15,679 nucleotides of DNA, taken from Promethearchaeota archaeon (GTDB lineage: Archaea > Asgardarchaeota > Hermodarchaeia > Hermodarchaeales > Hermodarchaeaceae). This document shows, one piece after another, positions 3,947 through 13,547 of this stretch. The notes beneath the pieces are model-generated. The model was given only the letters and a program-made list of their open reading frames with translations, was not told the DNA's origin and did not search any database. The translations under genes and the position numbers were made by a program. Position 1 is the first letter of the stretch, and each line of letters opens with the position of its first letter. Location of the stretch: contig JBHLPR010000051.1 in NCBI GenBank assembly GCA_048939245.1, forward strand, positions 1 to 15,679, written 5' to 3'.

Positions 3947-4705
3947 ATGTCGAAATTACGGTGCCCTGAATGCCTAATTCTTGTGGGTCCTCAAGATGCC
4001 GTTTGTCCTCAGTGTGGCTATCGGTTTCGAACTGAACAGTTTGAACGCATTCTACCTTTCATGAAACGCCCTGAACGCCAATGGGAAAGTCGGTTATCGC
4101 TGCGACAACGCCTTTGGGGGATTTTACGCTTTCCTGCTATCACCTTTTGGGATATTGCTCATGAACCGGATAACCGGGGGCCAGCCCTAATTTTCTTGGG
4201 TAACCTATTTGCAATCTCGTTGTGGTATGTGGCTATGGCGTGGCATGTCCTCGATATCAGAGAACTGTTGCTATATGGGTTCTTTGGAGTGTTTACAATT
4301 CTTTCCTTGTTATACATGCTGTTGAACATATTTTATTTTGGAATCATTCATGCTATCGTCAATTATTCAGGCCGCGAAGGAGAATTTAGTGAAACATTTC
4401 TTTTGGGGCAGTATGCACTTCTCCCGTTTCTTTTCACAAATCTTGTATCGACTGGATTACTTTTTGTATTTCTCCCGAATACAACAACAGGGAACCTGAC
4501 TTTATTGTACATCAATCCTACTTGGTTAGCTGTTTATGCTCTAGCGAGTATCGCAATCGTATGGGGGGCAATACTTCTTTCGTTAGGAATTCGTGAACGC
4601 TATCGAATGCCTTCAGAAACGGCTCTTCTTATCACTATGAGTGTAACTGTGTTTGTGGTTATCGTTGCATTCGCTGTGCGGACGACCGTGATTCCACTTA
4701 TTTAA
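3947..4705 (+). CDS. Zinc-ribbon + Yip1-domain membrane protein
   Basis: N-terminal CPEC-x10-CPQCG ribbon. 'LWGILRFPAITFWDI' resembles the Yip1 N-terminal motif. About five hydrophobic helices, 'GREGEFSETFLLGQYALLP' matching the Yip1 G.g.f......Ya..P pattern, and 'W...LL..GI......' in the last helices. Confidence 0.75.
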   Translation: MSKLRCPECLILVGPQDAVCPQCGYRFRTEQFERILPFMKRPERQWESRLSLRQRLWGILRFPAITFWDIAHEPDNRGPALIFLGNLFAISLWYVAMAWHVLDIRELLLYGFFGVFTILSLLYMLLNIFYFGIIHAIVNYSGREGEFSETFLLGQYALLPFLFTNLVSTGLLFVFLPNTTTGNLTLLYINPTWLAVYALASIAIVWGAILLSLGIRERYRMPSETALLITMSVTVFVVIVAFAVRTTVIPLI

Positions 4706-5741
4706 AAACTGCTAAAATTTTCAAAGGTTGGGCTAACGCCGAATCAATGATAAATAATGGTTCTTCTTTCTTCAATCGGAGTTTTCCAAGCACCTGCTCA
4801 TCTTCAAGAACCTTTCCACGACGGATAATCTTGGGTTCCTGTAAACCAAAAGTCATTATCAACCGGTTCTTAACCTCTGCAACGGTTTCTTTTCGACCGA
4901 TGGCATAAATTTCACCCTCAAGTCGGAATCGATCACTACAAAGGAAGCAGTTGGGATTTCGAGCTAATTTGAGAATAGTAAATTGTTGATGAAGCCCATC
5001 ATAGAACAGGTAATTATCAAGGGGGGTTCCAATTTTCAAGAGATGCTTTAGCGCTTCTTGGAACTGAATTCCAGCGATTATTGTTGCTACGCTTAAGAGG
5101 GCGGGGAATTTGGGAGGGGGCTCTTCCACTTTTCGACGTTCTCCAGGTGGAGTACAGGCTTTTTGTAGTCGTTCAGCGGGGACAAGAGGTTGGCATTCCA
5201 GGCAAGCAGTGACGAAAGGTACTACTCGTTGCACATTTCCCCACCAGCCATACATTCCACCATGAATGAGAACCTTGTTCTTGTGTACACATAATGAGTT
5301 AAGCCATCGCCTAGCTTCGAAGGTGTCGAGACCATCGATTATGAGATCAGCTTCCTCGTAAATAGAATGCCTGACATCTTGAATCGCACAATTCAATGCA
5401 AGAACCTGAACATCAGGATTCATCTCACGAAGACGTTGGCCAGCGACAACGGCTTTTGCTTTTCCAACGTCCTCGTCGCTGTATAAGTATTGGCGGCTTA
5501 AGTTGGATAATTCAATAGTGTCAAAATCGATTATGACAACTTTCCCTATCCCAGTAAGAACTAAGTCGACAGCTACAATGGTCCCTAATGCTCCCATCCC
5601 TGCTACGATAACCGTGGACTGGGAAAGTTCCTCCTGATCCCAATTTTCCAGGAGTAGTTGACGAGCATACCTTTCTGTTCCTTGATAAACAGGGACCTTC
5701 TTCTTCTCTTCGATAATTTGGTCTTCCATAGCCAATTTCAC
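4698..5741 (-). CDS. Ubiquitin-activating enzyme E1 (ThiF/UBA family, Uba3/Uba2-like) with C-terminal ubiquitin-fold domain
   Basis: GMGALG nucleotide loop, DFDTIELSNLSRQ, GKAKA, GLDTFEARRWLN, Zn pairs CLEC and CFLC, and a probable catalytic Cys in KACTPP. The C-terminal ETVAEVKNRL...IIRRGKVLEDEQVL is beta-grasp-like. The GTG at 5741 overlaps the E2 stop (GTGA); an alternative ATG is at 5729. Confidence 0.92.
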   Translation of the reverse strand: MKLAMEDQIIEEKKKVPVYQGTERYARQLLLENWDQEELSQSTVIVAGMGALGTIVAVDLVLTGIGKVVIIDFDTIELSNLSRQYLYSDEDVGKAKAVVAGQRLREMNPDVQVLALNCAIQDVRHSIYEEADLIIDGLDTFEARRWLNSLCVHKNKVLIHGGMYGWWGNVQRVVPFVTACLECQPLVPAERLQKACTPPGERRKVEEPPPKFPALLSVATIIAGIQFQEALKHLLKIGTPLDNYLFYDGLHQQFTILKLARNPNCFLCSDRFRLEGEIYAIGRKETVAEVKNRLIMTFGLQEPKIIRRGKVLEDEQVLGKLRLKKEEPLFIIDSALAQPLKILAVFK

Positions 5742-6199
5742 CTACGTTGAATCTGGTCCCATCCTGCAAATCGTTTAACCCAATCTCTTGCAGTGCGTTC
5801 GAATTTAACAGGATCTCGTTTTGCTTCTTTTGATGCTCTCTGATTTAAAGGATCATCCGGATTTGGAAAGTTCAATAGATTCCGTAACGTTTCAACAACT
5901 CCGGTTAATGACATGCTAGGAAGCCAATCCTTTCCCAAAATTCCGACGCAGACTCGTCCTCTGTAAATGTTTGGGTGCCAAACCTTTGTGATAAATCGGA
6001 CTTGTGGTGGTTCATAAGGGAAAGAGCGTGGAACATTAATTTGCAAGACAAAAACGCCGCTATCATAGATGCCTGTACCTAATATGAATCCCTGCCATCG
6101 TCTAAGGTCCCCTTGGACAGGTTGGAACGATGGTTCCTCAGTTTCCATATTTTTGGCTTCAAGAGCTAATCTTGCCCAATAGTCCTCTTCTGCTAACAT
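5738..6199 (-). CDS. Ubiquitin-conjugating enzyme E2 (UBC fold, active)
   Basis: FPYEPPQVRFITKVWHPNIYRGRVCVGILGKDWLP contains the HPN motif and catalytic Cys, followed by PNPDDPLN. The ATG at 6199 is preferred over the ORF-track start at 6235. Confidence 0.95.
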   Translation of the reverse strand: MLAEEDYWARLALEAKNMETEEPSFQPVQGDLRRWQGFILGTGIYDSGVFVLQINVPRSFPYEPPQVRFITKVWHPNIYRGRVCVGILGKDWLPSMSLTGVVETLRNLLNFPNPDDPLNQRASKEAKRDPVKFERTARDWVKRFAGWDQIQRR

Positions 6200-6398: not shown

Positions 6399-6635
6399 CT
6401 AGCCGCCCTCGGTCCTCGTGATGAGGTATAATTTGTCATGTGGTGTGATGCCGACACTCTTGACGGTTTGTTCATCAGTCAGTTGGGCTCCACGATATGC
6501 TAGGATAACGATATTAGGCGGTATCCGTCGCATTTGAGCCACACGATTCCGAATTTCTCCAATAGTTGTATTGGATTCCACCTCAAGAGCGATGGGGTCA
6601 CTACCACCAATCGCTGGTACAACTTCTATTCGCAT
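6399..6635 (-). CDS. Ubiquitin (eukaryote-like beta-grasp modifier) ending in Gly-Gly
   Basis: 78 aa. IALEVESNTTIGEIRNRV, IPP, LAYRGAQLTDEQTV and LYLITRTEGG-stop align to ubiquitin ITLEVEPSDTIENVKAKI, IPP, LIFAGKQLEDGRTL and LHLVLRLRGG. Confidence 0.93.
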   Translation of the reverse strand: MRIEVVPAIGGSDPIALEVESNTTIGEIRNRVAQMRRIPPNIVILAYRGAQLTDEQTVKSVGITPHDKLYLITRTEGG

Positions 6636-6649
6636 TTTTCAACCACCGA

Positions 6650-6901
6650 CTATTTTCTAACCGGTTTCAACCTTCGTAGGTTAATGCGGTTCCGACATAT
6701 GGGACAGGTGCCCTTCATCTTCACCCATTCTGCAAGGTGTCGATAGTGCGCAGGATTGCCACAATGCGGGCAATAGACCATTTGTTCACCATCACGGATT
6801 TGGAGGCGACAAACACAGCACATCGCAGCAGTTTTGGTCCAATCCCATTGGCCAATTTCTTTCACCGATGAGATAACAAACCGTCCTGCTGATTGTGTCA
6901 T
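6650..6901 (-). CDS. Small RING-finger E3 ligase, Rbx1/Apc11-like N-terminus
   Basis: Ligands C28-x2-C31, C44-x2-C47, H52-x2-H55, W59 and C66-x2-C69-R70. Lies 14 nt upstream of ubiquitin; AAGGGG RBS. Confidence 0.88.
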   Translation of the reverse strand: MTQSAGRFVISSVKEIGQWDWTKTAAMCCVCRLQIRDGEQMVYCPHCGNPAHYRHLAEWVKMKGTCPICRNRINLRRLKPVRK

Positions 6902-6949
6902 GTTCTTGCCCCTTGGTCAGTTCCGCTCGGGCAATTCTTCTAGATGCGT

Positions 6950-6959
6950 TCTTAAAAAA
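6950..6959 (-). promoter_or_regulatory. Putative TATA box of the RING-ubiquitin unit (TTTTTTAAG)
   Basis: AT-rich box about 50 nt upstream of the RING ATG. Confidence 0.35.
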
Positions 6960-7025
6960 CTATGGAAATGCGTCCTCACTAAGACGTTTTACTATTTTTC
7001 TCCAAAATCCGTCTGAGGTACAATT

Positions 7026-7190
7026 TTTTTTAGTCAAATTAAAGCGTGAACTACCCCTATACGTGTACAGAGGTTTTCATCGAGTCCGCTACCCCTGGAA
7101 ACTGGTGTAGGGCTGTGTTTCGATGCAAGCCATCCAAGAAATCTCTTAGTGGCTCCCCGTTCACAGGGGATTGCTGCAATAGGAACCGCA
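7026..7190 (-). ncRNA. Putative omegaRNA/reRNA (scaffold overlapping the tnpB 3' end, plus flanking guide GCUUUAAUUUGACUAAAAAA)
   Basis: Minus-strand hairpins TCCCC-TGTGAAC-GGGGA and CCTCTGTAC/GTATAGGGG precede TAGTTCAC. By known TnpB biology the roughly 16-20 nt beyond the right end (7045 down to about 7026) form the guide. The 5' boundary is approximate. Confidence 0.6.
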
Positions 7191-8420
7191 CCATAATATT
7201 GACCGCGGCATTTTGATCCCGATCAAAGGGGGTTCCACAATCGCATTGGATAATGCGCTCTGATAAGGGTCGATTACGAATTTTGCCACAGACACAACAT
7301 GTCTTCGTAGTATAGCTTTCGTCAATTCTCACTACTCTTTTCCCTACACACTTTGCTTTGTAGGTTAAGAATTCGACGAACCTTCCTAAAAACCCAGTAT
7401 TGTGAATGGAATGATTCAAGGTTCTCATTGATTTCAATCTTCGTGAATTAATCACGGGTTTTTCCTTTCTTGCCATTTTCTTAATTTTTATTCTACCGAG
7501 AACTATAGTATTAGCCCGTGTATTTTCAACCACACACTTTGAGATTTTGTGTTGAAAATCACGTAGCTGATTATTCATTTTTCCTTGCATTTTCTTTATT
7601 TTTGCATCATATCTCGACCATTTATTGCTAGAACGTCTACAATGGTCACGTTTTGATTGTACTTCACTAATTCTCTTTTTCCAGTATAGATCTGCACGGC
7701 GATTTCGTATTTGGATAAATTTACCATGTATGTTGACCGCTGTAATCAGATTTTTAATACCCAAGTCTATGGCTTGATACAATCCATTATCTTCGAAGCT
7801 GGGAATATCCTTCATGAAAATGATAGCAACAAACCACCGGCGAAACCGATCCTGGAATAGCTCGACTTGTCTTATTCTCATGATCATTGGTGGGAACCAA
7901 GGCAGACGAAATTTTAATTTAACTTTTGATGGATGGCGATGAGAAAAACAAATCGTCTTCTCATCTGTATCAATAGTAAATCCAGATTGGTTGTAGCACA
8001 AAGTATTGAAGTATTGCTTGCCTTTGAAACGTGGAGGTCTTGCTCGCGTGTCACCTTTATTCCATTGAGCAAAGAAGGACTTGTAATCGGCATCCAAGCG
8101 ACGCAATACCATTTGTAGGACTTTAGAGTAGACCCATGTATATTCAGGGTATTTCTTTTTGAGACCAGGCAAGTCATTCTGTTGCTTGGTATATGTTATG
8201 TAATGTCGTTCAACTTTTGGCTTTATTCGATTTATTTCCCATTGTTGCCTTCGTTCAGCTAAAGCAAAGTTGTAGAGAAGTCGGCATTTCTCAGATAAAT
8301 CCCATAATACCTGCACTTGTTTGGCTGTGGGTTTTATGCGAATCTTTCGTGTCAGTATCACTGTATTCATTCTAACGATAAGGATGCCATCTCTATTCTT
8401 CAATTTATAGGGGAGAGGTG
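7046..8420 (-). mobile_element. IS200/IS605-family TnpB-only (IS1341-like) element; left end not defined
   Basis: tnpB is followed by a subterminal hairpin and ...GGGGTAGTTCAC, the typical right-end pattern, ending at 7046. No tnpA is adjacent. The 8420 boundary is approximate. Confidence 0.75.
7057..8370 (-). CDS. tnpB: RNA-guided endonuclease TnpB
   Basis: N-terminal KIRIKPTAKQ...CRLLYNFAL, RPPRFKGK, RuvC-I AIDLG, Zn finger CCVCG...CDCG and RuvC-III DRDQNAAVNI. The ATG at 8370 is preferred over the TTG at 8454. Confidence 0.93.
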   Translation of the reverse strand: MNTVILTRKIRIKPTAKQVQVLWDLSEKCRLLYNFALAERRQQWEINRIKPKVERHYITYTKQQNDLPGLKKKYPEYTWVYSKVLQMVLRRLDADYKSFFAQWNKGDTRARPPRFKGKQYFNTLCYNQSGFTIDTDEKTICFSHRHPSKVKLKFRLPWFPPMIMRIRQVELFQDRFRRWFVAIIFMKDIPSFEDNGLYQAIDLGIKNLITAVNIHGKFIQIRNRRADLYWKKRISEVQSKRDHCRRSSNKWSRYDAKIKKMQGKMNNQLRDFQHKISKCVVENTRANTIVLGRIKIKKMARKEKPVINSRRLKSMRTLNHSIHNTGFLGRFVEFLTYKAKCVGKRVVRIDESYTTKTCCVCGKIRNRPLSERIIQCDCGTPFDRDQNAAVNIMVRFLLQQSPVNGEPLRDFLDGLHRNTALHQFPGVADSMKTSVHV

Positions 8421-8519
8421 CTGATAAATTACTTAATTGAGAAGCTATATGCAATCGGCAAATAATTAAATGTCTGCGGTGAGTAAACTTGATTGAGAGC
8501 TTCGGGGGTTATTCTAACC

Positions 8520-9056
8520 GTGTCCTCTGAACCACCTAAATACGCTATCGAAATTGAAGCCATCAAAACGCCCAAAGGCTTAGTGCCTACAGTTGAGTCC
8601 CTGAAGCGCATTGTGAAAGGGCTGAACTTACTCGACTCAGACCTTGGACGGATGAATCTAAAGATGGAGGCTAATATTCGCGCCCTCCTCCGGGAGGTCA
8701 AGACACTTCAGAAGCTGGTAGCTGATGATACCATCGCTTCCGAGTCTTCGGTAGAACGGCTCGGAGTTCTTGTCGATCGATTCGAGAACTTTGAAAAAAC
8801 TATAGACAAAGTCACGAAAAAGCAACCTGAGTCGAGTTCGAAAGAACTTCGAGAACTTCAAAAAGAACTCGTTCCCACTTTAACCCACGCGGTTCAACGG
8901 CTTGAAGAAATGGTAGCATTATTTGAAACACGCTTTGCAGAATTCCTTCGTGAATTACAAAGCAACATTCTCGTTACTGTCCGACAAGCTGTCAAAGACT
9001 CCCCTCCTAAACAGAAGACATCCACAAAGCGAAAAACTAAGAGTAGTTCAACATGA
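8520..9056 (+). CDS. Uncharacterised coiled-coil protein heading the ESCRT-I/II operon
   Basis: Long heptad-rich helices and a Lys/Ser/Thr-rich tail. The GTG at 8520 with an upstream GGGGTT is preferred over the TTG at 8493. No family recognised. Confidence 0.7.
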   Translation: MSSEPPKYAIEIEAIKTPKGLVPTVESLKRIVKGLNLLDSDLGRMNLKMEANIRALLREVKTLQKLVADDTIASESSVERLGVLVDRFENFEKTIDKVTKKQPESSSKELRELQKELVPTLTHAVQRLEEMVALFETRFAEFLRELQSNILVTVRQAVKDSPPKQKTSTKRKTKSSST

Positions 9057-9141
9057 CTGCCCCTGACAGGTTCCAGTTGCCAAAGATTAAATGTCCGCTC
9101 TCACTAGCAGGATTCGAATAAAGATATCATGGTGTGTTTCA

Positions 9142-9897
9142 ATGGCACAGGCTGTTAGAAGTCAACAAGAATTAGCGATTGCTCGTGAAGCGCAACTTAT
9201 GTACCGACGTGCGCCCACATTCACCCCCGTAGAGTCTAATCTCCGTCGATGGCGAGGAAAGATCAAAGGCGGGACACGAACTAAGCAAGAATTTCTTGTA
9301 GAGATCATAGTGCCTCCCAACTTTCCAGCTCAACCGCCAGTTGCACGAATGCTTACGCCAACAAAACATCCTCGGGTTGACTCGGAGTCAGGTGCTATTC
9401 ATCTTCGAATAGTCACCCAATGGCAACCTCATTATCACGTCTACCAGGTGGTTAATAGCATCAAAGGTCTTTTCGCCCGTGAGCCTCCTGTGCCAGATGT
9501 AACCCGAGATGCCCCGAAAGTTGAAATGCCTCAGAAGGAGGAAGTTCTTCAGCAACGTTATCAACAACTTGAACGTGAGGTTTCACGATTAACCAAGAAG
9601 GTTCAAGAACGCGACGAACGTCTCGCTAGGATGGCTGCTCAAATAGATACGGGGTCCATTACGGCTGGTGAAGTCACCGACGAAGATGAGCTTGACGAGC
9701 TTATCCTTCCTGCCGATGCAAAGGAAAGAGAGAAGCTTGAACTTGAAAGCGAAAAGCTCGCTATATCAGATCTTTTGCAGAATCTCGAACAAAAATTTGA
9801 CTCCGCTGAGATTACTTCAACCGAATATACAAAACTCTACAAACGATACAAGAAACGACTCTACCAAATTGACAAAGCCCTCGAGAAATACGTCTAA
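9142..9897 (+). CDS. vps23: ESCRT-I Vps23/TSG101-like protein (UEV + coiled coil + steadiness box)
   Basis: UBC fold with HPN changed to HPR and the catalytic Cys replaced (GAIHL), a short Pro-rich linker, a coiled coil (LQQRYQQLEREVSRL), and a C-terminal helical hairpin LLQNLEQKFDSAEITSTEYTKLYKRY like the Vps23/37 core. ATG at 9142 with GGTG RBS; the ORF track starts at 9091. Confidence 0.85.
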   Translation: MAQAVRSQQELAIAREAQLMYRRAPTFTPVESNLRRWRGKIKGGTRTKQEFLVEIIVPPNFPAQPPVARMLTPTKHPRVDSESGAIHLRIVTQWQPHYHVYQVVNSIKGLFAREPPVPDVTRDAPKVEMPQKEEVLQQRYQQLEREVSRLTKKVQERDERLARMAAQIDTGSITAGEVTDEDELDELILPADAKEREKLELESEKLAISDLLQNLEQKFDSAEITSTEYTKLYKRYKKRLYQIDKALEKYV

Positions 9898-9923: not shown

Positions 9924-10571
9924 ATGGCCATGCGTGAGAAAAAACGACCCAAAAAAGTGAAGGTTGTCGAACTAGAAGCTGAATTGTATGGTACGATAGC
10001 AACCCTTGACAGTATTGCAGAAAAATTCGACGAGGGAGATTTACAACCCGCGCTCTATAAGCGACAATTTAAATCACTGGTTAGCGACACCATCAAAACC
10101 CGACAACTACTTGAGGCAGAAGGTGAAAGTTGGGACGAATTTGTGGAAGAGGAAAATATCACCGAACGGTTTCCTACTGCTGTGGAAAAACTTCAACTTG
10201 GTGAACGCGCCCCTGAAGGCGAGGAAACCGTTGAACTTGCACCCCAAACCTCAGCACGAATGGCTGCGAAAACTGCCGATATTGTCTCAGATCTAATCAC
10301 ACTTATTGATATTGCCAAACTCGGCGACGTAGCAAAAATGAGCTTAATCGTACCTCTCTTGGATGACGCCATCATCCTCTTGACTAAGTATCCTAACTTC
10401 CCACCTGAATATTGGATATTGGTTGCGCTCAAAGATTGGCGAAATCAGCTCCAAGGAAGAGATCCGCACGAGACACTTAATAGCGAAGAATCTAAACAAC
10501 TCGAATTTCAGGCTGTTCGCTGGCTAAATGACTTTAAGCGACGACTCCGAGAGATGGCAGCTGATGAATGA
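9924..10571 (+). CDS. vps28: ESCRT-I subunit Vps28
   Basis: N-terminal AELYGTIATLDSIAEKF...Y...F..L and C-terminal four-helix bundle ADIVSDLITLIDIAKL...LIVPLL...W...L...ETLNSEESKQLEFQ match Vps28 (AELysIi.tld.lEkay; A.....FIT.MDALKL...lhPLL; dtL.e.q.RqllFd). Confidence 0.9.
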   Translation: MAMREKKRPKKVKVVELEAELYGTIATLDSIAEKFDEGDLQPALYKRQFKSLVSDTIKTRQLLEAEGESWDEFVEEENITERFPTAVEKLQLGERAPEGEETVELAPQTSARMAAKTADIVSDLITLIDIAKLGDVAKMSLIVPLLDDAIILLTKYPNFPPEYWILVALKDWRNQLQGRDPHETLNSEESKQLEFQAVRWLNDFKRRLREMAADE

Positions 10572-10590
10572 ATGTTGAGGCAGAAAGCTG

Positions 10591-10884
10591 ATGGTACACC
10601 CAATGCGTTCCTTTGCCGAAATGCGCGAACGGTTGGTGAACGCTATCAACAAAGCTAATCTGCGTATCAACGCGGAGTACATCCTTGAAGATTTAGATGT
10701 GGTCGCAGCCTTTGCTGAAGCCATGCTTGGCTTTGATCACCCTGTAACACAGGAAGCCCAGGAATGGTATGAATACTTCTGGGCAAAATATGGAAATAAT
10801 CTAACCCAACATGTAGAGGAAGTAGAGGCGCGACGCTTTGCGATGCGCGCTGAAACCTGGCTCAATTATATTCGACAAATATGA
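10591..10884 (+). CDS. Small helical protein, probable stand-alone Vps28 C-terminal-domain paralog
   Basis: 97 aa with a GAGG RBS and an ATGA overlap with vps22. Aligns by eye over its whole length to the C-terminal domain of the adjacent Vps28 (see findings). Confidence 0.6.
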   Translation: MVHPMRSFAEMRERLVNAINKANLRINAEYILEDLDVVAAFAEAMLGFDHPVTQEAQEWYEYFWAKYGNNLTQHVEEVEARRFAMRAETWLNYIRQI

Positions 10885-11633
10885 GGAGGAAGAATCTCTT
10901 GGGACTTTGGGAAATCGAAAAGCAAATGGAAATGGATGCAGCGTACAAAAAGAAACGTGTCGAGTTAATGCTCAAGGAATTAGAACATATGCTTCAAAGC
11001 ATTTCTGAACTTCGAGATAAAGCAGATGTCTTTGAGGAGACTTATGGCGAGGTTATCGAGGTCTCGCCGGAATATAGTGAAAAAGCTGCCACAATTGCCC
11101 ATGAGTTAGGGATCACTATGCCGGGCATTCCATTTTCCGAAGATATGAAAGAAAAACCCGGATTAATGGAACGTCTCACTGGTCGAGGACGTTTCTACGA
11201 TGAATTAGGATTACAAATCCTTGACATCGCCAAACGACGTCGAGACGCTACCGGTGGCATCATGACCTTAGCAGAAATAGTACTGATTGTCAATAAACAA
11301 CGTCGGTCAAGTGTTTCCCAAGTCAATGTAGCCAAAGCTATCCAGAATTTGGCCAATGCTAAATTAATACCAGGAATTCGAAAACTTCCTTCAGGAATCC
11401 GAATCGTAGAACTCATTCCACGAGAATTAACAAATGATCAGGTTGCTGTTCTCTCCATTGCAAGTCGGTCCGGATATACCACCCTCGAAGAAGTTATGAA
11501 CAAAACCAAATGGAACCAAGAAAGAGCTGACGCCGCTCTCCAAAGCCTTGAAGCCGTCGGAGCTGCAAAGATCGATAAATCCTTTGTTCACGGTAAACGC
11601 TATTTCTTCCCCGGTCTAAACCCCACAGACTGA
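10881..11633 (+). CDS. vps22: ESCRT-II subunit Vps22/SNF8 (EAP30 family)
   Basis: FYDELGLQILDI....RDATGGIMTL, SVS..NV.KAI..L, IPRELTNDQVAVLSIA..SGYTT, W..ERA..AL..L...G...ID and YFFP all match Snf8/Vps22. The N-terminal MRRK..G basic helix also resembles SNF8. Confidence 0.92.
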   Translation: MRRKNLLGLWEIEKQMEMDAAYKKKRVELMLKELEHMLQSISELRDKADVFEETYGEVIEVSPEYSEKAATIAHELGITMPGIPFSEDMKEKPGLMERLTGRGRFYDELGLQILDIAKRRRDATGGIMTLAEIVLIVNKQRRSSVSQVNVAKAIQNLANAKLIPGIRKLPSGIRIVELIPRELTNDQVAVLSIASRSGYTTLEEVMNKTKWNQERADAALQSLEAVGAAKIDKSFVHGKRYFFPGLNPTD

Positions 11634-11650: not shown

Positions 11651-12379
11651 TTAAATCAGCACCTCAACTACTTCTCGTTCTCGATCCAGCCATTTTGCCT
11701 GGTTTCTACTCACTAAACATTCAAGAATAATGCGCAGTTCAGATTTTGGTAAGGTCGCCAAGTCCTTACGATACTCTTTCAATTTGAACAGAGTGAATGT
11801 GGTTCGACCAGTCTTCAAAGCCCATTGACGAATTTCGTTCGCCCATTCATCATCAGTTTTCCATGTAATCCGAATAATTCCTTCGGCTTCATCAATCCAA
11901 CGACCCAGCTCTTCCTTAACAAGAACCCCAAGAATGATTTTCACCGCTTGTATGCGGTCTGGACGAAGATCATTGAACGGATCTAACATTACCAGTGTCC
12001 GTGTCGACACAATGTGCAATAGCATCTCTCGGCAATAATCAACGGTAAAACCTGCCCATTCGGCTCCCCATTGTTCGATATCAGCTTCCGAAGTTGGAAT
12101 GACAAACATAAAGCCATATCGGCCGCGTTTGGCAATCCAGACGAATCGTCGGCCAAGTTTCGCAATTGCTTTACGGGCTAATTCCTCGAGCTCTTTCTCT
12201 TCTTCTTCGGTCACAGGCATAACAAAAACAGCGGCGTCATCTTCTTGCTCAACGCTAGCCATCTGTTCGCGTGTCTTCTTCAGGAGGTCCAACCACTCTT
12301 CTTCAGTAAGCTCGATATCAGCTCGTAATTCATCTTTCTCCTTCGGTTTGGACCGTTCCCTAGGCTTTTCCTTCGACAC
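11651..12379 (-). CDS. vps25: ESCRT-II subunit Vps25 with acidic N-terminal extension
   Basis: EW..F..DYCR, PFN, IL..LV....GRWID....I.ITWKTDDEWANEIRQWA..TG...FTLFKL and IL..LV...QA match the tandem winged helices of Vps25. GTG start 10 nt after the vps4 stop. Confidence 0.85.
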   Translation of the reverse strand: MSKEKPRERSKPKEKDELRADIELTEEEWLDLLKKTREQMASVEQEDDAAVFVMPVTEEEEKELEELARKAIAKLGRRFVWIAKRGRYGFMFVIPTSEADIEQWGAEWAGFTVDYCREMLLHIVSTRTLVMLDPFNDLRPDRIQAVKIILGVLVKEELGRWIDEAEGIIRITWKTDDEWANEIRQWALKTGRTTFTLFKLKEYRKDLATLPKSELRIILECLVSRNQAKWLDREREVVEVLI

Positions 12380-12389
12380 GTTCTATCCC

Positions 12390-13547
12390 CTATGAACCAT
12401 GCGTGTTATCCCATTCAATATATCTCGCCTGCTCTTCAGGTGAAACCACCGACCGGATATTCTTAAGGGCATCAAGAAAATCTTGAAGATTCACTGGACG
12501 CGCCATAACCTCCTTATCACGAATAGCCCCTGATGCATCCATTTCCCGGATGGGTTGCAGCGATGCTTCACGGCAGATAAGCGCAATATCTGAGCCTGCA
12601 TATTCATCTGTTTTTTCACCGAGTATGTTAAAATCTACATCTGGAGCTAAATCAATCCCCTTCGTATGAATTTCAAAGATGCGAACGCGCGCTTCGAATT
12701 CTGGAATAGGCACCAAGATTCGTCGTTCAAATCGACGTCGGAATGCGGCATCAAGATCCCAAGGACGATTTGTTGCCCCTAATACGACAATATGGTCGCC
12801 CTTCTTGCTCTTCATTCCATCCATTTCGATCAAAAACTGGGTTTTAAGACGGCGTTCGCCACCCACCTGATCGGCACCTCTTTCAGCAGTGAGTGCGTCA
12901 ACCTCGTCCATAAACACAATAGCCGGTTGCTCCTTTCGGGCAGATGTAAAGAGGTTTTTGACTAACCGCTCGGATTCGCCTAACCATTTAGACACTAGCG
13001 ATGCTGCATCTGCGTTGAAGAAGGTGCATCCGACCTCATTCGCCACCGCCTTGGCAATCAGAGTCTTGCCACATCCCGGTGGGCCAAAGAGCAATACACC
13101 CTTCCAGGGACGCCGAGCTCCGGTAAACAAGTCAGGGCGGAGCAAGGGTAGAATCACTGATTCACGAAGCGCTTGTTTTGCCTCTTCAAGATCTGCTACA
13201 TCTTCCCATTTGACATCGGGTTTTTCTTTGATGATCATGCTATCGATGTCTTCCTGTAACTCCTTATCTTCTTGGTCTTCAATCTCTACTCCCTCAAAAT
13301 CGGGAGCCGGGCCCCGGGCAGGAATCTTAGCACTCCGCAGGGTCTTCGCTCGTGCTACATACTGATCCGCGCGCTCTAAGGCGATACGACGGAGTTGCGG
13401 GTTCTTGGACACTTTCATGACCCGCACAAGAATATCAGCGGCTTCGATGTACTTGGACATCGCTGCGGACCGCTTCCCTTGCTGATCTAAGACTAAGGCT
13501 TCATTGGCTTTTGTTTCTGCAAGCTGAAACATCGCTGAGCTGGTCAA
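12390..13547 (-). CDS. vps4: Vps4 AAA+ ATPase (MIT + AAA)
   Basis: MIT domain (A...A...D..G....A...Y..A...L...Y..RA..L), KPDVKWEDVA.LE.AK.ALRE.VILP, RPWKGVLLFGPPGCGKT, LVSKWLGESE, MDEVD, ATNRPWDLD.A.RRRFERRI, and a C-terminal W...HGS. TTG start, with an alternative ATG at 13532. Confidence 0.95.
   Translation of the reverse strand: MTSSAMFQLAETKANEALVLDQQGKRSAAMSKYIEAADILVRVMKVSKNPQLRRIALERADQYVARAKTLRSAKIPARGPAPDFEGVEIEDQEDKELQEDIDSMIIKEKPDVKWEDVADLEEAKQALRESVILPLLRPDLFTGARRPWKGVLLFGPPGCGKTLIAKAVANEVGCTFFNADAASLVSKWLGESERLVKNLFTSARKEQPAIVFMDEVDALTAERGADQVGGERRLKTQFLIEMDGMKSKKGDHIVVLGATNRPWDLDAAFRRRFERRILVPIPEFEARVRIFEIHTKGIDLAPDVDFNILGEKTDEYAGSDIALICREASLQPIREMDASGAIRDKEVMARPVNLQDFLDALKNIRSVVSPEEQARYIEWDNTHGS

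Follow-up and report, generated by a model that had tools for sequence, protein, structure and literature searches.

The window analysed here, a stretch of 15,679 nt, holds a Hermodarchaeia ubiquitin-ESCRT locus that includes two divergent gene runs. The run on the minus strand is headed by a gene for a small RING E3 of 83 aa (6650–6901), followed by genes for ubiquitin, which ends in GG (6399–6635), an E2 conjugating enzyme (5738–6196; UQ_con, E = 7e-34) and an E1 with ThiF and C-terminal ubiquitin-fold domains (4698–5741). The plus-strand run starts from a GTG with a 178-aa coiled-coil protein, CC (8520–9056), and continues with UEV-Vps23 (9091–9897), the reported substrate of the Asgard cascade (bioRxiv 10.1101/2023.07.25.550441), and then with Vps28, a conserved 97-aa gene and Vps22 (9924–11633). 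Vps25 (ESCRT-II, E = 1e-10) and Vps4, assigned by sequence features and conserved gene order, converge on this run from the minus strand (11651–13547); no ESCRT-III gene was seen within the window. The 97-aa gene (10591–10884) encodes a helical protein with no Pfam match, which may correspond to the Vps28 C-terminal domain that PMC10936438 mentions as separately encoded. A zinc-ribbon-Yip1 membrane protein gene that converges on E1 (3947–4705) is kept in many of these loci, and a small Cys-rich ORF (612–803) is conserved in Hermodarchaeia. Between the RING and CC genes lies a single-copy, TnpB-only element of the IS200/IS605 type (7001–8465, minus strand), absent from three relatives that were compared and have about 47 bp in its place; its insertion may affect the expression of either divergent gene run.

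The 83-aa ORF encodes the RING E3 of this ubiquitin operon, an ortholog of srfp and a member of the known archaeal operon RING family (zf-RING_2, 29.8 bits; cut-off 27.3). The translation of the minus strand agrees with the earlier note on this DNA, and so do the C-C-C-C-H-H-C-C ligand set (C28, C31, C44, C47, H52, H55, C66 and C69) and the lack of a third-zinc insertion. The linchpin Arg reported there does directly follow the last Cys ligand (R70), but it varies among orthologs and the match is incidental. The RING core, C28–C69 (6695–6820, minus strand), includes Trp59 of the E2-binding helix and is supported by invariant alignment columns and by matches to RING/U-box folds (Z of 7–9). The protein has the pattern of a stand-alone small RING (about 70–140 aa, CxxC...CxxC-x4-H...W...CxxC) and, as expected of the srfp type, it is encoded beside ubiquitin, E2 and E1. 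For orthologous RINGs, substrate ubiquitylation in vitro was reported with E1, E2 and ubiquitin as the sole other components (PMC5654768; bioRxiv 10.1101/2023.07.25.550441). Many Asgard genomes contain an expanded set of proteins that end in this type of RING (up to 35 matches), often membrane proteins. Loci L096, L101 and L071-L095 belong to this series, which includes a Hodarchaeales TM-helical-RING protein of about 440 aa near an AAA ATPase gene.

Ahead of the RING core lies a conserved N-terminal arm, R7–W21 (6839–6883, minus strand), predicted to be a partner-binding β-strand. Its motif, F-x8-G-x-W-x-W, is kept from Asgard to Aigarchaeota with F/Y8, I/V16, G17, W19 and W21 as the conserved positions, and its conservation within archaea is far above chance. 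Of the RF-x10-WxW pattern proposed earlier, F/Y8, W19 and W21 are kept in Asgard orthologs, but the Arg is not among the conserved positions. Thirteen Asgard families keep the arm in their single-copy operon RING, and a more divergent version occurs in proteins labelled Hodarchaeales or Heimdallarchaeota as well as in Aigarchaeota/Nitrososphaerota. Its conservation was already reported, as that of an 'N-loop', in bioRxiv 10.1101/2023.07.25.550441. In the AlphaFold2 monomer the arm has no secondary structure and lower confidence, as expected for a strand that needs a partner, and in one locus a Pro/Gly linker of about 45 residues separates it from the RING, indicating that it lies outside the RING fold. 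The arm is missing from the many Asgard proteins in which this type of RING is fused at the C-terminus, and for this reason we rejected the long RING fusions as Rosetta-stone scaffolds.

CC accompanies the arm in several gene arrangements, and we propose it as the scaffold on which the RING may dock. It belongs to the asCOG005522 family of bioRxiv 10.1101/2023.07.25.550441, identified through the Odinarchaeum ortholog WEU39992.1, and that preprint likens the family to a Vip3 segment. Its 91 matches include dozens of archaeal relatives; searches by profile, Foldseek and Atlas returned no informative match, and a match of the CC profile in PEP carboxykinase was discarded as chance. In the model, CC has an unpaired strand, then a hairpin and then a long helix. 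The N-terminal strand and the β-hairpin motif T-P-x-G-x-V-P (8538–8591, plus strand), whose T and P are invariant in 48–50 sequences, make up the proposed docking site, based on conservation and the model.

Across 151 Asgard genomes there is mostly one copy each of the arm-RING and CC, and the two are found together at the level of families. Neither was found with these queries in 69 genomes of four families (f4, 14 genomes; f6, 26; f9, 25; f13, 4), one f10 genome that is 80% complete has an arm-RING with no CC found, and both genes are present but unlinked in f7, f8 and G012. Related genomes are not independent samples, and we gave weight to rearrangements, duplications and a domain swap and not to genome counts. 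As simple co-regulation could explain divergent neighbours, we looked for cases in which the operon is broken. The two genes adjoin in four gene orders. The divergent arrangement seen at 6650–9056 is one of those that keep the pair together; CC is followed by a co-directional RING in 7/7 f21 genomes and also in f17, and the RING is followed by an abutting or overlapping CC in Aigarchaeota/Nitrososphaerota-type loci, with RING-CC order also in f27. At three loci the RING-CC pair has no ubiquitin, E1 or E2 within 4 kb, and CC accompanies the RING where both leave the ESCRT cluster. Six f18 genomes carry a second arm-RING head to head with a CC-AAA fusion, the two having been duplicated together. 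When 169,000 six-frame residues of 23 CC loci were searched with an arm profile made from RINGs only, seven CC neighbours ranked first, one of them a UFC1-like E2 (12.7 bits, E = 0.011).

Several arm-RING genes adjoining CC were overlooked by public gene calls (L241:3192-3539; L238:729-1058; L237 near 4395-4733), so that the RING-CC linkage was hidden in annotations. After CC, Aigarchaeota-type loci have a convergent coiled-coil gene of about 270–360 aa and a membrane-anchored RING of about 240–260 aa (L242:4394-6130, L245:4312-6036, L246:4326-6050, L263:4375-6092, L241:4095-6533). In family f20 a RING fused to a small GTPase-like domain lies between the arm-RING and CC (L018:1874-2518).

The arm is also found on a different conjugation enzyme. 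It is present in 21/22 homologs of a Helarchaeota UFC1-like E2, outside the Pfam match, and at the loci that were read the gene lies two genes from a CC-AAA fusion. One genome (G151) has both pairs, arm-RING with CC and UFC1-like E2 with CC-AAA. Three families (f16, f19 and f22) have CC and no arm-RING, as found across the genomes surveyed and in five genomes tested further, and it is precisely in these three that a UFC1-like protein carries an N-terminal strand together with W-[DN]-[FY] (12/151 genomes). In f16 the sequence G-[FY]-W-[DN]-F is found in 5/5 genomes; the f19 and f22 extensions are without the Gly, do not register with the arm profile and form the least secure part of this series.

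The CC-AAA fusion lies beside SMC genes in other lineages. UBA5-like ThiF and UFC1-like E2 genes (PF08694, 28.6 bits; cut-off 25) were seen at Asgard loci L240:917-9375, L285:3005-12534 and L287-L298, in Helarchaeota beside CC-AAA and SMC; UFC1 has been reported as exclusively eukaryotic (PMC10183829). An 89-aa gene with no Pfam match (L240:917-1186) may encode the modifier. Freyarchaeia/Jordarchaeia have a second ubiquitin operon (L197:210-11701; also L198, L199 and L277-L279) with genes for JAMM, FANCL-like RWD/UBC-RING, peptidase-like-RING, arm-RING, CC-AAA and SMC, and with two genes that resemble kleisin and ScpB by position and size; this operon possibly represents SMC-linked ubiquitylation. 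At L201-L203 and L244, in lineages without the RING, genes for SMC, two SMC-partner-like proteins, primase large subunit, UBA5-like ThiF and CC are arranged in a single run of one orientation.

We modelled the complex of the RING with two copies of CC(1-72). The model reached an ipSAE of 0.49, compared with 0.00 for the best control, a value to be read against a calibration in which the ipSAE mark was reached by 58/80 solved and 2/110 mismatched pairs, with only 7/80 solved pairs and both mismatches at 0.60 or under. The runs shared at least 90% of contacts with a partner pLDDT of at least 78, which fell to 60 in control models with CC replaced. The model lends weak support to binding of the two proteins; strand pairing by the arm is our inference.

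The arm, then, is conserved, linked to CC and portable between proteins, and we consider it fairly likely that the arm-RING docks on CC through its arm as a two-part archaeal ligase. In such a ligase, E1 would charge ubiquitin and hand it over to E2, and the RING core would bind the charged E2 and promote transfer, as orthologs do in vitro. The arm would serve as a portable docking strand, disordered alone, which binds the N-terminal strand and hairpin of CC, probably by β-strand addition. CC would probably oligomerise and position the ligase, here likely at ESCRT-I, because CC heads the UEV-Vps23/Vps28/Vps22 gene run. Since orthologous RINGs are active in vitro with E1, E2 and ubiquitin alone, CC is not needed for catalysis, and a role in localisation or substrate adaptation is more likely for it than one in activation. 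The module would work like Rbx1 on a cullin, though CC is not a cullin.

The published reading takes the arm as a substrate-recognition loop for UEV-Vps23, and would leave CC as only a co-regulated neighbour. It draws on KD values for the Helarchaeia UEV of 2.57e-4 M with the full RING and 8.14e-3 M with the delta1-19 RING, and on mono-ubiquitylation of Vps23 at K201 (bioRxiv 10.1101/2023.07.25.550441), and it agrees with the position of CC at the head of the Vps23 gene run at this locus. However, the affinity between UEV and RING is very weak, and the fold change quoted there is 3.17, which does not agree with the value of about 32 from the quoted KDs. Moreover, the arm persists at loci without UEV-Vps23 nearby and on the UFC1-like E2, and CC moves with the RING when both leave the ESCRT cluster. 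We regard this reading as unlikely.

Many RINGs dimerise through flanking segments. The arm might accordingly mediate homo-oligomerisation or contact with E2 or E1, with the linkage to CC reflecting a shared pathway without direct binding. In what was examined the arm was found only on conjugation enzymes, as this explanation would have it, but many fused Asgard RINGs of the same type do without an arm, and the loss of partner confidence in the model controls with CC replaced also speaks against it; we judge it quite improbable. Docking of the arm on CC remains our preferred reading.

The earlier note had likened residues 7–35 of the RING to human Rbx1. The Rbx1 fragment it gave is exact when compared with PDB 6r7i_R 4-32, the Rbx2 and Apc11 arm fragments were also verified against sequence, and the gapless alignment is real, with 8/29 identities (R7, F8, W19, W21, C28, C31, R32 and I35 of the RING). 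RF, WxW and CxxC are in register as had been claimed, but R32 of CxxCR is not conserved among orthologs and its identity is incidental. Compared with the Rbx strand W-N-x-V-A-x-W-x-W, the V/I, the small residue and W-x-W of the archaeal arm are in register; the W-N pair common to Rbx1, Rbx2 and Apc11 (Rbx W27-N28) has no counterpart in it. Anchored at the first Cys, the Rbx1 arm obtained 10.8–12.1 bits on the Asgard arm matrix, on which held-out archaeal arms mostly obtained about 5–19 bits, the Rbx2 arm 6.9 bits and the Apc11 arm 5.3 bits. A score of 12.1 bits was reached by 7e-5 of random anchors and by 0/747 CxxC-upstream segments (shuffle p = 0.004), and on a broader arm matrix the three eukaryotic arms obtained 7–8 bits (p = 2-3e-3). 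The anchored p-values thus span 7e-5 to 4e-3 overall and are suggestive only, because the choice of Rbx1 was made by eye from the hundreds of RINGs that eukaryotes have, a selection that p = 2-3e-3 does not survive.

Without anchoring at the first Cys, the match of the arm to Rbx1 does not exceed chance. Blind arm-only profile searches of the PDB retrieved no Rbx or Apc11 at E ≤ 10, and a single RBX2 match for residues 5–36 (E = 0.79) was discounted, as its 'SG' is unlike the native Rbx2 residues and is probably from an expression tag. In whole-protein searches ordinary RING-H2 proteins rank above Rbx1; the profile matches to Rbx1 (E of about 1e-3) extend across the arm. A fold search with the RING model, in which the arm is unfolded, returned RING/U-box matches of a generic kind, Rbx1 not being among the 50 best, and there was no Rbx cluster among the ESM Atlas matches listed. 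The comparison with zf-rbx1 and zf-ANAPC11 suggested earlier was negative: the RING has no match at E ≤ 1, zf-ANAPC11 matches nothing else in this genome at that limit, 0/61 genomes contain a protein over the zf-ANAPC11 cut-off, and genome searches with the two profiles failed to single out arm-RINGs. RING-box proteins have a RING-H2 ligand order with a third-zinc insertion, and what we found is C4H2C2 with a 12-residue first loop. Both this ligand set and the lack of the W-N pair speak against membership in the RING-box family, and judged from its sequence the 83-aa RING is not a member by Pfam or ligand set. Homology of the arm strand to that of Rbx1 is possible but doubtful; by analogy, the RING is probably, like Rbx1, a catalytic domain that works from a docking strand.

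The suggestion of the earlier note that the RING is a proto-Rbx1 docking by strand addition on a scaffold holds insofar as the arm is conserved, is unstructured in the monomer model and behaves like a docking module. A cullin as its partner was not supported: by sequence search, no Cullin (PF00888) was over the cut-off in the 151 Asgard genomes (G000 being 88% complete), and Cullin_Nedd8 (PF10557) was over the cut-off in 0/61 genomes. Five weak Cullin matches in the 151 genomes were below the cut-off and scattered over the model. CC itself was rejected as a cullin, being 178 aa long, modelled over residues 2–102 as a hairpin and one long helix, and without a Cullin Pfam match. We find it very improbable that the RING is a proto-Rbx1 with a cullin, or a protein like the cullin CTD, as its docking partner in Asgard archaea, for although the register is gapless, the Rbx1 arm scores within the range of held-out archaeal arms and above all 747 CxxC-upstream segments, and profile matches to Rbx1 span the arm, no Cullin or Cullin_Nedd8 is over the cut-off, arm profiles retrieve no Rbx1 or Apc11 at E ≤ 10, the p-value on the broader matrix is lost on choosing among hundreds of RINGs, and the ligand set differs.

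CC is a better scaffold candidate for the arm-RING than a cullin. By eye, its strand-T-P-x-G-x-V-P-T segment resembles the cullin strand-T-x-G-x-W-P-T (CUL3 502-515, sequence verified), which we take to be the segment that pairs with Rbx1. One could imagine arm and CC as an ancestral TACK-Asgard two-subunit ligase module, with the Rbx1/Apc11 strand descending from the arm and the CC segment as a possible seed of the Rbx-binding site of cullins; we hold this to be decidedly unlikely, and if it were true, cullin-RING assembly would have originated in archaea.

So far, reconstituted archaeal ubiquitin systems have consisted only of ubiquitin, E1, E2 and RING. If the arm binds CC, these systems would have a further conserved component, a scaffold that ranges from Aigarchaeota to Asgard; the assembly of multi-subunit E3s by strand addition would then be older than eukaryotes. 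The presence of the same plug on UFC1-like E2s beside SMC genes implies that one docking code may serve two modifier systems. A literature search covering few subscription journals found no paper linking the arm to CC, Rbx1 or UFC1-like E2s; the enzyme itself is already known, and the arm as a docking module is probably unrecognised.

Of the known systems, the closest are described for the same enzyme family. Like the 83-aa RING, srfp of Caldiarchaeum subterraneum (CSUB_C1477; PMC3082918, PMC5654768) is a small stand-alone RING with third and fourth cysteine ligands shifted in the same way, and it is encoded in a ubiquitin-E2-E1 operon; Aigarchaeota-type relatives have the arm and CC directly downstream. 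Compared by description, srfp differs in its sixth ligand, which is Cys in the published motif and His here, and the accessible text of these papers describes no arm function or scaffold. The Asgard UEV-Vps23 cluster of bioRxiv 10.1101/2023.07.25.550441 includes an orthologous RING with the same N-terminal region and the same neighbour, asCOG005522. In contrast to our reading, the accessible text of that preprint assigns the N-loop to UEV binding, with no link between RING and CC and no comparison with Rbx1, and does not mention the arm on UFC1-like E2s or in Aigarchaeota. Rbx1, Rbx2 and Apc11 differ from the archaeal RING, which is without the third zinc site, W27-N28 and, in the genomes searched, a cullin, and is C4H2C2 and not RING-H2; the scaffold proposed for it, a short hairpin and a coiled coil without a fold match, is also unlike a cullin. 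They are alike in combining a small RING with an N-terminal strand in which W-x-W lies about 5–7 residues before the first Cys. Docking on a scaffold by this strand has been shown for Rbx and would apply by analogy to the archaeal arm, suggesting a two-part archaeal ligase built on the same principle as the eukaryotic cullin-RING ligases.
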